Both the position numbers and the translations under genes were made by a program. A DNA stretch of 64,000 bases from Candidatus Latescibacterota bacterium (GTDB lineage Bacteria > Latescibacterota > UBA2968 > GCA-2709665). The stretch is taken from contig CBDDDZ010000005.1 of NCBI GenBank assembly GCA_965226795.1, positions 2,432,001 through 2,496,000 of the forward strand. The letters run 5' to 3'. Position 1 is the first letter of the stretch; every line of letters begins with the position of its first letter. Below are positions 49,172 to 62,946 of the stretch, piece after piece. The notes beneath the pieces are model-generated. The model saw nothing but the letters and a program-made list of their open reading frames with translations. It was not told the origin of the DNA and did not search any database.

Positions 49172-50101
49172 ATGATCCCCCTGCTCAGCAGCCTTTGCTA
49201 CGGACCGCTTGAAGTCTGTCAACTCCCCCGGACCTGGTGGAAAGTCCTGCTTCGAAACGCGGGCCTGCTCGATGAAGAATACCCCGACGTCAGCGAAGGC
49301 CTGGATAAATCCGTCCTTGAAGTGCTGAACCTGGACAGAGAAACAACCCTGGCGTACTTGCGGGAGAACATGCCCGACTACCTCCAGTTTGAAGCCTGGG
49401 TCCTCGAACAAAACGACGGAAAGTTCGAACGAAAAGCAATCGAAAGCTGGAATGAATCCGTGCGTACCCGGGTTCACACCCGGCCCGATAAGCTGCAGGA
49501 AACCACGAGTGACATCGGCATTCCCAACGACGGCGCGATCACGTCAGCCGTGATCCTCAACAGCCTCCAGGACGGGTCGCTTTTCTTCAGACGGGACCTG
49601 ACGGAGGGATTTTCGGCCCTGGGCGGTCGCGTCGTGCCCCTCGTCTCCAGCCTGGACTACGGACCGCTCAACGTCTGCCAACTCCCGCGTACCTGGCTGA
49701 AAATACTGCTCAGATCCCGGAACCTGCTTCATCCCGACTATCCCGACATGACCGAAAACGGCCTGGACCCCCGTGTTCTGCGCGCCGTGAACATCCAGCC
49801 GAACGACGCCGTTTGTTTCATCCGGGACAACGCGCCTATGTATCTTGACTTCGAAGCCTGGATTCTGCGACAAAACGACGGAACCGTCGACCCCGGCGCC
49901 GTCGACGAATGGAACAAATTCGTGCGAACCCGAATCCATTCAAATGAGAAAATCGCGGACATTCACAATACCCTCGGCCTGGAAAACGACGGCAGCCTGA
50001 CCTCCGCCGTCGTCCTGAACCACGTTGAAGACTGGCACTTCGCGCACGCGGACCTGACGGGCACGGGCGACCGTTCGTCGCGACCGGCAGAGGCCGTCTG
50101 A
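49172..50101 (+). CDS. Protein of two tandem DUF5069-like domains
   Basis: Halves begin IPLLSSLCYGPLEVCQLPRTWWK and VPLVSSLDYGPLNVCQLPRTWLK; both contain YL.FEAW.L.QNDG and TSAV.LN. Confidence 0.75.
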   Translation: MIPLLSSLCYGPLEVCQLPRTWWKVLLRNAGLLDEEYPDVSEGLDKSVLEVLNLDRETTLAYLRENMPDYLQFEAWVLEQNDGKFERKAIESWNESVRTRVHTRPDKLQETTSDIGIPNDGAITSAVILNSLQDGSLFFRRDLTEGFSALGGRVVPLVSSLDYGPLNVCQLPRTWLKILLRSRNLLHPDYPDMTENGLDPRVLRAVNIQPNDAVCFIRDNAPMYLDFEAWILRQNDGTVDPGAVDEWNKFVRTRIHSNEKIADIHNTLGLENDGSLTSAVVLNHVEDWHFAHADLTGTGDRSSRPAEAV

Positions 50102-50242
50102 AAATCCTGAAGCTGCCCCGCGCGCCGCAACAAACCGGAACCCACCCGTATCGGCTGGGTTTTTTGGCATGATAATGGAGATTATCGACGGACGTCTATG
50201 TCGCCATCTCATCAATCCTCCATTTTGGCCTTCAAGTCATTG

Positions 50243-50271
50243 TTGACTTCACTCGTACTACGGATTAAATT
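50243..50271 (+). promoter_or_regulatory. Sigma70 promoter with no adjacent protein-coding gene
   Basis: TTGACT-N17-TAAATT in an AT-rich patch. Confidence 0.65.
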
Positions 50272-50277
50272 ACTACT

Positions 50278-50612
50278 AAATTTACGTATTAGTCTACTTT
50301 ACCCGTAAATAGAACCGGCAGGGCAGATCTTCCATGTGGAGCCAGGAGCCCCAACGCCACCCGGGGTCACGGGAAGTCGCCTCGCTTTGAATAAGCCGCA
50401 GGCGATAATCGGCTGTACAAGTAGCTAACGCCGTTCAAAGATCTGTTCGCGTTCGGAAAGGAGGTGATACTGGAATCCACGTCGCTAAACGTTTCGCTGC
50501 TGTACATCTACGTGAGAAACTGTAGTTCGAGGCAAGTGCTGAAATGACACGTTTCGCTGTGTGAGTGATCGAGCGATGCCGCCGAAAAATGCACACCAGG
50601 TCTCTTCATTTC
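50278..50612 (+). ncRNA. Unidentified structured RNA or small-peptide mRNA
   Basis: Lies downstream of the promoter; several nested stems with G-U pairs; contains GAAAGGAGGTGAT. Family not recognised. Confidence 0.45.
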
Positions 50613-50641
50613 GCTATCACACCCTCCAGGTCAATCCCTAA

Positions 50642-50824
50642 CCGTCCGTTGATAATGTCGCTCTGCAGGCGAGGCCCAGTGTCCCGTCCCGGAAATAGAT
50701 TGCCATTGTGAACGACGACAAGGCGCGCGACCGAGTCGAATAGGTGGATTCGGGGAGGGCGCGCAACGCAGTAATTCGGCCACAAGAGCCGGCCGCAGCC
50801 CGGATGGACTTTTTCAACGGCCTG
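50642..50824. mobile_element. Degenerate nested MITE remnants
   Basis: Terminus at 50678-50704 is 25/27 identical to the 25821-25847 end; outer imperfect inverted repeat 50642-50659 / 50807-50824 (14/18). Confidence 0.55.
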
Positions 50825-50864
50825 CCAAGTTCCATCAAGCACAGTCTCTTCATACGGTTCATTC

Positions 50865-51170
50865 ACAGTTAATCACCCCGTAATCGCGTGAATCACAGTC
50901 CGTGGTACGGCTGGGTGGCGCTCCCTGCGCCTTAGTCTCAGTCAGTCACGGTAATCACGCAAGCCGCAGTCCGGGGTGTGGTTGAGCGACGTGCCTTCCG
51001 CTTTAATTTCCCAGTTAATCACCGCAATCATATGAATCACAGTCCGGGTGTGGTTGGCCGGCGGGCTTTGCCGTTTAATCACAGTCCCGGGGTGTGGTTT
51101 GGCGACGTGCCTTCCGATTTAATCGCAGTTTATCCGTCTAATCACAGTTAATCATAGTCTGGGGGTGTAC
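50865..51170 (+). repeat. Degenerate direct-repeat array (core AATCACAGTCCGGGGTGTGGTT)
   Basis: Five core copies near 50891, 50962, 51035, 51077 and 51150, interleaved with TAATCAC motifs. Confidence 0.8.
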
Positions 51171-51172
51171 AG

Positions 51173-52083
51173 ATGAAAAAGTTAACAATTTTGAGCCTCA
51201 TTCTTCTTTTGACGGCTGTTTTGTTCGCACAGGATTACACTCGCTGGGGACTTCCCGAAGGGGCCCTCTTGCGGATGGGCAAAGGAGACGTGCGCGCCGT
51301 GGCCTGGTCGCCGGACGGCACGCGTCTGGCCGTGGGGGCACCGCCGGGATCTGGCTCTACGATGCCCGCACCGGGGCGGAAGTTTCCCTGATCACAGGCC
51401 ATACGAGGAGAGTCAATTCGATGGTGTATTCGCCGGATGGGATGACCCTGGCAAGCCGCAGTTTCGACAATACGGTGCGGGTGTGGGACGTGGAAACGGG
51501 GCAGGAGAAAAGCACCCTCACCCTCACAGGGCATACCCGTGAAGTATTTTCGGTGGCGTATTCGCCGGATGGGACGATGCTGGCAAGCGCCAGTCGGGAC
51601 AGTACCGTGCGGCTGTGGGACCTGGCCACAGGACAGGAAATACACACCCTCACGCGGGCGGCTACCGGCGGGTCCAGTATAGCGTTTTCGCCGGATGGGA
51701 CGATGCTGACAAGCACCAAGTGGGACCATACGGTGCGGTTGTGGGACGTGGAGACTGGACAGCAAAAATACAGCCTGACAGGACATACGGACAACGTCAC
51801 TTCGATGGTGTTTTCTCCGGATGGGACGATGCTTGCAAGCGGAAGTCACGACGGCACGATTCTGCTGTGGGATGTGGCGCCGTATGTCGCACCTCAACCC
51901 CTAGCTGCCGACTTCGACGGCGACGGGACCGTGGATTTTCCCGACTTTCTGCAGTTCGCGGCGCAGGTCGGGCTGAGCCAGGGCGAGGCAGGGTATGAAG
52001 CGCGCTTCGACCTGGACGGCGACGGCACCGTCGGGTTCAGCGATTTTGTAATCTTTGCACGCAACTTCGGCCAGGGCGGGTGA
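51173..52083 (+). pseudogene. Secreted WD40-repeat protein with C-terminal dockerin/EF-hand-like domain; -1 frameshift in a G5 tract (51334-51338)
   Basis: Signal peptide, WGLPEGA..R.GKG, repeats of GHT..V.S.A.SPDG.MLAS...D.TVRLWD, ADFDGDGTVDFPDF...FDLDGDG. Confidence 0.85.
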
Positions 52084-52132: not shown

Positions 52133-52163
52133 AAAAAAGGCGCCCGAGATTCCGGGCGCCTTT
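52133..52163. terminator. Bidirectional intrinsic terminator
   Basis: AAAAAAGGCGCCCG-loop-CGGGCGCCTTT between convergent genes. Confidence 0.8.
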
Positions 52164-52188
52164 GACGTCTTTTCCTTTTTCGGCACGT

Positions 52189-52962
52189 TCAATCGTGATG
52201 TCCGCTCCGATGAAACGCAACGAAGAAGTCGGACACCCCGCGTATGATAATATCCAACATGGACCGCCCTTCCTCGGCGGTGGCATCCGCCGGATTGTCC
52301 GTGTAACCCACGCCCGACTGCCATTCACCGTGAACCTGGACCACGGCGCCCGAGAGGCCCACGTCCAGGCCCGCATCGTCGTGCACCTGACCGCTCATTG
52401 CGTCCAACGCCTCCCTGTTCACCAGGTCCGGTCGAACCGCCATTATCAGCGCGGCCTCGAATCGCCCGGCATGGCCCGGTATAAGCTTGGACGGCATGAC
52501 ATCGGTGAGTGCCTCGCGCGCAATATTCCAGTAATCGCCTGTAGCCACGGCGGCCGGATTGCCCAGGCGGTTCACGAAATCCTGCCCCGCGAGTCCGTTC
52601 GGGTTGGAATTTCCCCCGTGGCCGTTCAACACCACGAGCCGCTTGAATCCGCTTCGCACAAGGCCTTCGAGAACGTCAGTCACGGCGCCAACGAAAGTGG
52701 TGGTCTTGAGAGACAATACGCCTGGAAACGGATAGTGATGATGGGAATTGCCGAATTGCAGTGTGGGGGCCACGACCACACGCGCGTGTTCGTTCGCTCG
52801 GGCCGCGGCCTGGCGCGCAACCGTCTCGCAAAGAACGGTATCCGTACACACCGGCAGGTGGGGACCGTGCTGCTCAATGGCCGCTGTGGGCAGGACCGCC
52901 GTGGCCGAGGGCGCAACCTGTCGAATCTCCTCCCGGGTCATTTCTGCAAATAGAAAAGACAC
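52189..52962 (-). CDS. Creatininase family amidohydrolase
   Basis: AIEQHGPHLP..TD, NGHGGN, GHAGRFE, A.AEEG. Confidence 0.93.
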   Translation of the reverse strand: MSFLFAEMTREEIRQVAPSATAVLPTAAIEQHGPHLPVCTDTVLCETVARQAAARANEHARVVVAPTLQFGNSHHHYPFPGVLSLKTTTFVGAVTDVLEGLVRSGFKRLVVLNGHGGNSNPNGLAGQDFVNRLGNPAAVATGDYWNIAREALTDVMPSKLIPGHAGRFEAALIMAVRPDLVNREALDAMSGQVHDDAGLDVGLSGAVVQVHGEWQSGVGYTDNPADATAEEGRSMLDIIIRGVSDFFVAFHRSGHHD

Positions 52963-53018
52963 GGACTATCCTCCTGACGTCGCGGTAGTCGATCGGAACC
53001 GAACTCTGGGACTGGGAA

Positions 53019-54500
53019 CTAATTCTCCTGGATCTCTTCGAACGGATACAAGGGCCGCCTGCGATGGCGGAACTCGAACTTGCGCATGTCCGCCGCCGTT
53101 GCGCCGGGCGTATCCACGCGTATCAGGCGCTTGCACACGGGCGCGTAGGCCGCCACCGGCGCATGCACCCCCTTGGCGACAATGACGTCGAACGCGTCCG
53201 GACGCAAATCGCAACTGGTCATCAGACCCAGACTCACCGGTACGACCCGCCGGGACGTGAGGCTGACTGTCAGGCCCGTATCCGTGTCCACAACCACCGT
53301 CCGGCCCATGTCGAACGCCGTCCGCCCGCCATGCCGAATCTCGGGCTCCCGAAATCGACCGCTGTAAATGCCCCGAACCCTGACCATAGCCTCAAGAGGC
53401 GGGCCGTGCGATTCGTCGGTCTTTCCACCCATACGGAGCGTCACACTGTTGCCCACCCCCACCGTAGCCGCTTTCGATACGGATTCGCTGTCGTACAGAC
53501 ACACGAATGCCCGCGCATTGCGACGCCGATGCAATTCGTGCGCAAGCATCGTCCCATCCGCGGCAGACCCGCCTCCCACATTGTCCCCCATGTCCAGCAG
53601 GCAGACCGGGCCCTGTGTGGCCAGTGCCATGTCCACCGCCGCGTCGATGCCGATAAACTCACCCCTGAAGTCTCTCCGAAAGGTGTGGAGATGATCCGCG
53701 AGTTCTCCGGCAACGGCTTCCGCGAGGCCCGGATTTCCATCCGTCACCGCAATCATCGCAGTACCCATCTCCGGAACATCGGCGTAGGGGAATCCAAGCA
53801 CGATGCTATTCGACAACATGCCCGGCCGGTTCAGGAGGTCATCGGCCAGCTCGTACAGTTCCCTGCACGGTGACGATTCGGTCGATTGCCGTTCAATATT
53901 GATGGCAATCGGCGGAAACACGGCTGCCTGCGTGGGCTTGACTTCGCCTCGAAGCGTCCGCGCCATCAACCGCGACGCCTGCAGACCCACCTCCTTTTGA
54001 TCCAGGTGCGGGTTGCTGCGATAGGCAATGGTCGCATTACAGGCCGCAACCATTCTTTCCGACAGATTCGCGTGCGGATCGATCGTACAGATTATGGGCG
54101 TCTCTTCTCCAACCAGGCGACGCAGGCGGGACAGCCAGTATCCATCCAGGTCCCAATAATCGTCTCCCGCACCCACGTTCGCTCCGTGGGGCGCCACAAG
54201 CCATCCATCCAGTTTCCCGGCGTGTGCGACCTGTTCAAACATCATCCGCATGAGCGCGTCGCACGTCTCGTTCGTAATCCGGCCGGACGGCTCGGTGCTG
54301 GCGCAAAATAGCGGTACCGCTTCGATACCCGACTCGGCCAGACCGGCGAGGAAACCGCTGACCTCGTTCAACCCGTCCTTGAATGCCACCGCCACCTCAT
54401 CTCCGATCAGGATCCGACCTGACCTGAACATCTCCAGTGTGGTGGGGGTACAGATAAACGTATTGGACTCGTGTATCAAAGAAAGAATGCCGACGCGCAT
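53019..54500 (-). CDS. M81 family metallopeptidase (MlrC-like)
   Basis: HESNTF, HGA, DPHAN, YRSNPHLD, GFPYAD, DNVGGG, IRVDTPG. Confidence 0.93.
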   Translation of the reverse strand: MRVGILSLIHESNTFICTPTTLEMFRSGRILIGDEVAVAFKDGLNEVSGFLAGLAESGIEAVPLFCASTEPSGRITNETCDALMRMMFEQVAHAGKLDGWLVAPHGANVGAGDDYWDLDGYWLSRLRRLVGEETPIICTIDPHANLSERMVAACNATIAYRSNPHLDQKEVGLQASRLMARTLRGEVKPTQAAVFPPIAINIERQSTESSPCRELYELADDLLNRPGMLSNSIVLGFPYADVPEMGTAMIAVTDGNPGLAEAVAGELADHLHTFRRDFRGEFIGIDAAVDMALATQGPVCLLDMGDNVGGGSAADGTMLAHELHRRRNARAFVCLYDSESVSKAATVGVGNSVTLRMGGKTDESHGPPLEAMVRVRGIYSGRFREPEIRHGGRTAFDMGRTVVVDTDTGLTVSLTSRRVVPVSLGLMTSCDLRPDAFDVIVAKGVHAPVAAYAPVCKRLIRVDTPGATAADMRKFEFRHRRRPLYPFEEIQEN

Positions 54501-62848: not shown

Positions 62849-62946
62849 TGGCGGGAATGTGTGGGAATCGAACCCACCCAGCGCGTGATTAGCACGCCGC
62901 AACGGGTTTGAAGCCCGCGAGGGCCACCAGTGCCCCATCCACTCCC
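62849..62946 (-). tRNA. selC: tRNA-Sec (anticodon UCA)
   Basis: GGGAGTGG...GCGGGC-TTCAAA-CCCGT, long variable arm, GGTTCGATTCC, encoded CCA; 98 nt; follows selB. Confidence 0.96.

Follow-up and report, generated by a model that had tools for sequence, protein, structure and literature searches.

A long untranslated leader with a conserved head and a complementary array unit before WD40-repeat genes of one Latescibacterota genus

What is the segment at 50243-50612 of the window, a 64,000-nt stretch from a Candidatus Latescibacterota genome of 5.4 Mb (completeness 95.9%)? An earlier note, made from the sequence alone, read it as an orphan promoter driving a discrete, multi-domain structured RNA of ~330 nt, made up of a 5' hairpin and two domains. 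The promoter proved real, and the conserved non-coding stretch behind it, which matches no Rfam family, is present in RNA libraries; the orphan status and the discrete structured RNA did not hold. The segment makes up the first third of an untranslated leader of ~900 nt before a WD40-repeat gene, in one Latescibacterota genus, and sequence comparison indicated that it is a patchwork of duplicated leader modules and a genome-wide repeat (Table 1).

Table 1. Features of the leader and its surroundings, in window positions.
Feature	Position	Strand	Basis or remark
Terminator-like hairpin and T run, end of upstream operon	50144..50168	+	sequence
Sigma-70-type promoter TTGACT-17-TAAATT	50243..50271	+	predicted start ~50278
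Palindrome CTAA-N9-TTAG over predicted start, candidate operator	50276..50292		visible in 14/14 promoters
Variable 5' leader (claimed 5' hairpin and domain 1)	50278..50452	+	identity 0.54 and 0.51, 91 genome pairs
Conserved head	50453..50533	+	identity ~0.83 (0.82-0.84), 91 genome pairs
13-nt perfect complement of host 16S rRNA 3' tail	50456..50468	+	16S end at C5:1061965
Predicted local 6-bp hairpin	50463..50486	+	consensus fold of 14 first leaders; alternative to long-range pairing
Head tract complementary to anti-head array units	50472..50490	+	sequence comparison
Dispersed repeat (~130 nt), first part; 3' strand of claimed domain 2	50579..50641	+	28 genome matches
MITE-like element, terminal inverted repeats, within dispersed repeat	50638..50825		25 genome matches
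Dispersed repeat, second part	50825..50902	+	same ~130-nt repeat as 50579..50641
Tandem array, degenerate 70-74-nt units	50870..51160	+	4 units here
Anti-head unit 1	50981..50999	+	16/19 complementary to head
Anti-head unit 2	51097..51115	+	16/19 complementary to head
WD40-repeat gene, hydrophobic N-terminus	51173..52083	+	frameshift; pieces 51173-51391 and 51421-52083

The promoter was found as described, and its pattern was kept in the first leaders of all 14 genomes of the genus that have the locus. Three promoter-like sites occurred in 4 kb, compared with 1.4 +/- 1.2 by chance; the match is therefore unremarkable alone, and its conservation makes the case. RNA contigs also began just 3' of it, at 50287 (libraries X1 and X3, identical contigs) and 50300 (X4), which is 9-22 bases past the predicted start. 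The promoter is not an orphan, as it heads the leader of a WD40 gene that belongs, in relatives, to an array of up to 12 genes. Two further observations of the earlier note were borne out. The longest plus-strand open reading frame before 51173 had 57 codons, so that none of 60 codons or more occurs on that strand for about 900 bp, and the GC content was 49.5%, compared with 58.9% and 60.4% in the flanking genes. The palindrome over the predicted start had 13 loose matches in the genome and is a possible operator, judging from its sequence and position. No intrinsic terminator was found within the leader, nor after the array.

RNA-library contigs covered the segment and passed its proposed 3' end at 50612; the 452-nt contigs of X1 and X2, without differences, ran unbroken from 50339 to 50790. 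Read depth over the unique leader was 9-15 in X1-X3 as against 2-4 over the gene, and 6.9 in X4 as against 2.2-6.3 on the adjoining pieces and 47 in the neighbouring operon; X1-X4 belong to one study, their contigs show neither strand nor ends, and RNA libraries may contain DNA. These depths are in line with a leader that is transcribed modestly rather than with an abundant RNA. The gap in cover at 50918-51060 in X1-X3 and the lack of unique cover in X6 carry no weight. The minus-strand genes at 52163-54200 lay on one deep X4 contig, with a depth of 47, far above that of the leader.

The operon 5' of the leader ended at 50101. A 309-aa protein with an internal duplication, encoded at 49172-50101, had no Pfam match; its closest relatives (83-91% identical) came mostly from Latescibacterota-titled genomes, and further ones (61-65%) from Poribacteria-titled genomes. 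On the other side of the leader, the frameshift in the WD40 gene was crossed without a gap by the X2 and X3 RNA contigs and is therefore not an assembly error. The C-terminal tail of the WD40 protein presumably resembles a dockerin or EF-hand repeat, and neither was among the Pfam matches listed for it.

Homologues of the element were present in 13 of the 14 other genomes of the genus, always in the same place, before the WD40 array. The one genus genome without a match (G005) is assembled in 320 contigs. Outside the genus, none was found in 46 genomes by BLAST, in 125 by model search, or in 5 further genomes that included Poribacteria-titled ones. Twenty metagenome matches and one viral match to a search pattern were rejected as chance, with zero similarity beyond the pattern. 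In the stretches fetched (L039-L055), the array held 0 to 12 WD40 genes among 14 species. It also contained broken members and inserted open reading frames that are presumably transposase-like.

A 60-nt head occurred in 72 copies in the 14 regions, 24 of which headed a ~116-nt module (d1') and 48 a ~180-nt module (d2) that equals the claimed domain 2. Their mean identity was 66%. The identity, single-copy folding and Shine-Dalgarno (SD)-tract comparisons excluded four truncated d2 copies of G002, and the leader-peptide analysis excluded three of these; one module comparison omitted a duplicate G013 copy. A head lay within 1400 nt of 41 of the 63 WD40-family genes in the fetched stretches; the other 22 had none nearby. 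Modules were often deleted, and some internal ones kept a decayed promoter. Because of these decayed promoters and the 22 genes without a head, the modules between array genes are best read as duplicated, partly deleted copies of the first leader, which recombination spread while the array gained and lost genes. The first leader itself outlasted genes: it preceded a different gene in G001, where the WD40 genes were gone, and in G006 and G014 the first WD40 gene was deleted and the promoter, head and tandem array retained. In six genomes a ~395-aa protein without Pfam match closed the array (L051:6494-7687 and orthologues in G003, G004, G006, G007 and G014). Its ribosome site is the end of a d1' module, and its gene is the likely source of that module. 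An unlinked, decayed promoter and leader preceded another WD40 gene in G008 (L151:4560-7907), interrupted by a transposase-like fragment.

The dispersed repeat flanked a GxxExxY (PF13366) gene on both sides (G000:C1:4894-6290, L176), and its 28 copies genome-wide suggest a mobile unit. This AT-rich repeat also formed a 46-nt tandem array near that gene. The MITE-like family (~170 nt) had 23 strong copies in the genome (E<1e-5), and the window's copy carried extra bases inside. Its insertion at the leader was found in only 4 of the 14 genomes, namely G000 (the window's genome), G003, G008 and G013; G014 had a family member in another intergenic region. The array varied from 4 to 11 units per leader, with 100 units in the 14 genomes, and folding 60 of the 83 ordinary units gave no consensus fold at default settings.

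Does the segment fold as proposed? Each of the named complementary stretches was present, and the helix closing domain 2 had the 15 of 18 pairs claimed, with one bulge. The pairings were, however, no more than expected by chance. The plus strand folded with z = +1.11, and 85 of 100 shuffles folded equally well; no 120-nt window inside 50271-50630 fell below z = -0.8. Positions 50329-50331 and 50438-50440 were each claimed by two helices. Mean pairing probabilities were 0.84, 0.56, 0.46, 0.40 and 0.35 for five helices and 0.12, 0.06, 0.02, 0.01 and 0.00 for the other five, and the best fold holding the proposed pairs reached -83.2 as against -95.6 kcal/mol. Abundant G-U pairing had been taken as a sign of RNA structure, but only 7 of the 63 compatible pairs were G-U.

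The homologues gave the same answer, with 26-31% of pair cells broken and no excess of compensatory changes. In 43 d2 copies, the three proposed helices were 74.0% paired compared with 72.7% in shuffles, with 10 double-change pairs compared with 11.2; in the 14 orthologous leaders the figure was 69.1%, with 17 double-change pairs compared with 16.2. Among these leaders the 5' hairpin was 50.5% paired, and with most domain-1 helices it fell in the range of 44-54%. Single module copies folded like shuffles (z < -2 in 1 of 44 d2 and 0 of 24 d1'), no consensus fold was obtained at default settings among 48 d2 and 24 d1' copies, and the top mutual-information pairs of the modules were mostly non-canonical. 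The domains were not units either. Domain 1 is a chimera and was halved or replaced in most relatives. Only its second half is part of d1', the ~116-nt module that recurs between the array genes of relatives and whose tail is 50397-50466. The strand said to close domain 2 is the genome-dispersed repeat, which occurs without its partner. The real promoter, the presence in RNA libraries and the conservation within the genus would all suit a discrete RNA of ~330 nt. Percent paired and the covariation score also exceeded most shuffles (equalled by 1 and 23 of 500 for the d2 copies and 0 of 500 for the leaders), an excess that relatedness alone can cause. Given the folding results and the contigs that run through 50612, this model is largely refuted and has almost no chance of being correct.

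The earlier note saw no match to tmRNA, RNase P, SRP or the common riboswitches, and the Rfam covariance-model scan agreed, with no match above noise. Scans at gathering and E-value thresholds, which covered the window together with six homologous loci and a long leader, gave nothing for the element. The window's only Rfam match was tRNA-Sec at 62853-62946 on the minus strand. The head resembles a tmRNA 5' end, but ARAGORN found no tmRNA at the locus, and the genome's own lies on contig C3.

The head is the part of the leader under selection. Over 91 genome pairs its identity stood well above that of four-fold sites (0.65-0.68) and of four further intergenic regions compared in the same pairs (0.65-0.71). 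Identity fell to 0.74 in mid-d2 and 0.64 at the d2 end, and the variable 5' part (0.51-0.54) lay below four-fold sites. One other promoter region of these genomes was also indel-poor and conserved. The predicted local hairpin in the head was paired in 83 of 84 cells, with zero double changes. As a motif, the head had no site above the training minimum elsewhere in the genome; the top scores of 30.3, 29.6 and 25.3 belonged to this locus and the next was 21.0, which gave no sign of a regulon.

Within the head lies an SD-like tract, the 16S-tail complement, whose 12-mer occurred 5 times in the genome. It was kept at 94% in the internal copies. Its central A (50462) was T in 6 of the 16 array-bearing heads, and also in a close strain (run X10). 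The tract might start a leader peptide of 24-25 codons, as the consensus frame was open for 25 codons in d2 and 24 in d1', and stop-bearing copies were fewer than simulated (13 of 45 vs 20 +/- 3.4, and 6 of 24 vs 12.9 +/- 2.5), although the copies are not independent. However, the tract was followed by an acceptable start triplet in 1 of the 16 array-bearing heads and in 15 of the 29 internal ones, pN/pS was 0.84-0.91 and no lower than in other frames, and codon periodicity was absent. A leader peptide is thus highly improbable, and a leader-peptide attenuator was rejected, as neither a conserved start codon nor selection at the protein level was seen. An anti-anti-SD (decoy) switch, in which the anti-head would pair with the gene's ribosome site and the head would free it, was also rejected. 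When the tract was shuffled, the energy needed to open that ribosome site changed by 0.35 kcal/mol, compared with 0.69 for a control window; the comparison covered 21 of the 32 internal copies, and for 3 others no start was found. The anti-head paired with the site with a probability of at most 0.19 in 11 of 12 leaders.

What distinguishes the head is a partner in the array. Each array holds one head-complementary unit, or two in the window's array. This anti-head unit was 84.5% identical across genomes and was the head's best-binding unit in 15 of 16 leaders. Across 29 pairs, 92.9% of 463 cells were paired (97.1% in the central helix), compared with 31-48% in slid controls, and in a comparison with 120 random windows, made for 5 of the 14 genomes, the complementarity was the stronger in 120, 119, 118, 115 and 109 cases. 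One-sided changes mostly kept pairing via G-U, and three changed G-U to G-C. The continuous core is 9 bp and its 9 nt were invariant on both sides. Complementarity was thus conserved in the sequences, and pairing in the cell is inferred from it. Whole-leader folds predicted the core helix with a probability of at least 0.44 in 12 of 16 leaders. It failed in G000, G001, G002 and G006, where short local pairings won; in the window's own genome (G000) the long-range helix had probabilities of 0.0 and 0.1. Covariation was at shuffle level: a single pair had a double change, a count equalled in 280 of 500 shuffles, as variation was absent from most columns (12 of 29 pairs were constant). All 16 array-bearing heads had an intact core, compared with 10 of the 32 that lacked an array, a contrast that amounts to one event, since the array-bearing heads form nearly one clade (2 changes). 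Conservation covered the whole head, not the paired part alone, and a neighbouring array unit was conserved too. Head and anti-head may descend from one sequence that was copied in inverted orientation long ago. An invertible DNA segment was rejected, with all 16 leaders in one orientation, and no strand-changing joints appeared in two likely DNA runs, whose contigs drop rare forms.

Taken together, we propose an untranslated leader whose head pairs with an array unit 390-890 nt downstream, probably exerting post-initiation control on read-through into the WD40 genes, and give this reading a probability of about 0.45. In the nascent RNA, the head would first fold into its local 6-bp hairpin. 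When the anti-head unit emerges, a ~20-bp interrupted duplex could replace the hairpin and close a loop that holds a C-rich, G-poor tract (24 C vs 8 G at 50591-50650). Most likely, the switch would control whether Rho ends transcription within the untranslated leader; the next candidate is cleavage of the duplex by RNase III. The genome encodes Rho, RNase III and RNase E/G. At a completeness of 95.9%, it gave neither RNase J nor CsrA, and this speaks against a STAB-SD or a sponge role; there was a single NusG and thus no dedicated antitermination paralogue. In its widest form, the proposal describes a new class of cis-regulatory leader, in which a head complementary to the 16S tail alternates between its local hairpin and a duplex with a single specialised 72-nt array unit up to 900 nt away; the tandem array would have been recruited from a mobile GxxExxY-linked repeat, and the switch would govern a hypervariable set of arrayed genes for secreted, eukaryote-like WD40 proteins in a symbiont of sponges. 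We regard that wider claim as doubtful.

The same complementarity would arise if head and anti-head were inverted DNA sites of one protein acting by looping or roadblock repression, with RNA pairing as a by-product. The shared core is invariant on both sides, the head has a 14-bp palindrome around AAACGTTT that presumably resembles LacI-family operators, the binding energies on both strands are often similar, and another promoter region is likewise conserved and poor in indels. This is nonetheless unlikely: the motif scored above its training minimum nowhere else in the genome, conserved G-U pairs lengthen the match at the RNA level only, the spacing varies from 389 to 890 nt, and 80 contiguous conserved bases are long for an operator. 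It could also be that the promoter alone matters. The leader would then be a mosaic of repeats under weak constraint, and the complementarity would be a relic of an old inversion. Half of the leader came from dispersed repeats and the MITE-like element, neither modules nor array units had a consensus fold, modules were often deleted, and the downstream gene is broken in the window's genome. The excess of head identity over the intergenic regions and the retention of head and anti-head in all 14 genomes, despite 4 to 11 array units, make such a relic rather improbable.

If promoter, head and array instead formed a stand-alone RNA of 700-1100 nt, closed by the head/anti-head stem and acting as a repeat-based protein sponge, it would explain why the unit persists without the WD40 genes (G001) or the first of them (G006, G014), and why the leader was deeper than the gene in X1-X3. 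But a depth of 7-15 is modest compared with 47 for the next operon, the array was the part least covered by RNA contigs, and CsrA, a consensus fold of the array units and a terminator after the array were all missing from what we found. A sponge RNA is thus very unlikely.

The proposed leader, controlled after initiation, appears to work like known long regulatory 5' leaders, of which its head and array architecture would be an undescribed variant confined to one genus. Rho-dependent attenuation occurs in the long leaders of E. coli rpoS and of Salmonella mgtA and corA. The present leader is likewise long, untranslated and co-oriented with its gene, and has alternative pairings, a C-rich, G-poor tract, an encoded Rho and no intrinsic terminator. 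It differs in that the pairing partner is 390-890 nt off, inside a tandem array, and termination is presumed. RNase III cuts stems formed by distant segments, as in rRNA stalks and the E. coli pnp and adhE leaders. The long-range interrupted duplex, insertion-tolerant loop and encoded RNase III would be alike here, but the continuous core has only 9 bp and the cleavage is presumed. Repeat-array RNAs include CRISPR, type III antitoxins and CsrB/RsmZ. A promoter followed by a tandem array with a CRISPR-like period of 70-74 nt recalls these, but here whole units are homologous and degenerate and the next gene encodes a WD40 protein. A CRISPR array was rejected, as the near-identical repeats with unique spacers were missing, and a CsrB/RsmZ-type sponge was rejected as CsrA was not found.

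In the STAB-SD of Bacillus thuringiensis cry3Aa, 30S binding is proposed to block ribonuclease access (PMC12970973). There too a strong SD-like tract lies far from a start codon in a long leader. Here the tract also lacks a start codon, but the 5'-3' enzyme RNase J, which would have to be blocked, was not found, the tract is predicted to be paired in both states, and its central A is replaced in the heads mentioned above. The repeat that flanks the GxxExxY gene also supplies the last third of domain 2 and the tail of the leader, but here it is embedded in a leader and amplified into the array. Our literature search found nothing on these flanking repeats, on a Latescibacter noncoding-RNA motif or on an anti-anti-Shine-Dalgarno leader, and no description of the element, which published supplementary motif tables could hold.

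Eukaryote-like repeat proteins, WD40 included, are abundant in sponge-associated Latescibacterota (PMC12993501). Single proteins of this kind were reported to alter uptake by sponge cells, in a study whose text does not mention WD40 (PMC13747020). No literature on the regulation of such protein arrays was found. What the leader offers is a promoter at a defined place, a candidate operator and a single pairing open to experiment. Its study also illustrates that a hand-folded 'orphan' RNA needs homologues: with them, the proposed fold dissolved and a different, longer-range element emerged. An identical 158-nt piece of the element was present in a run labelled as sponge metagenome.
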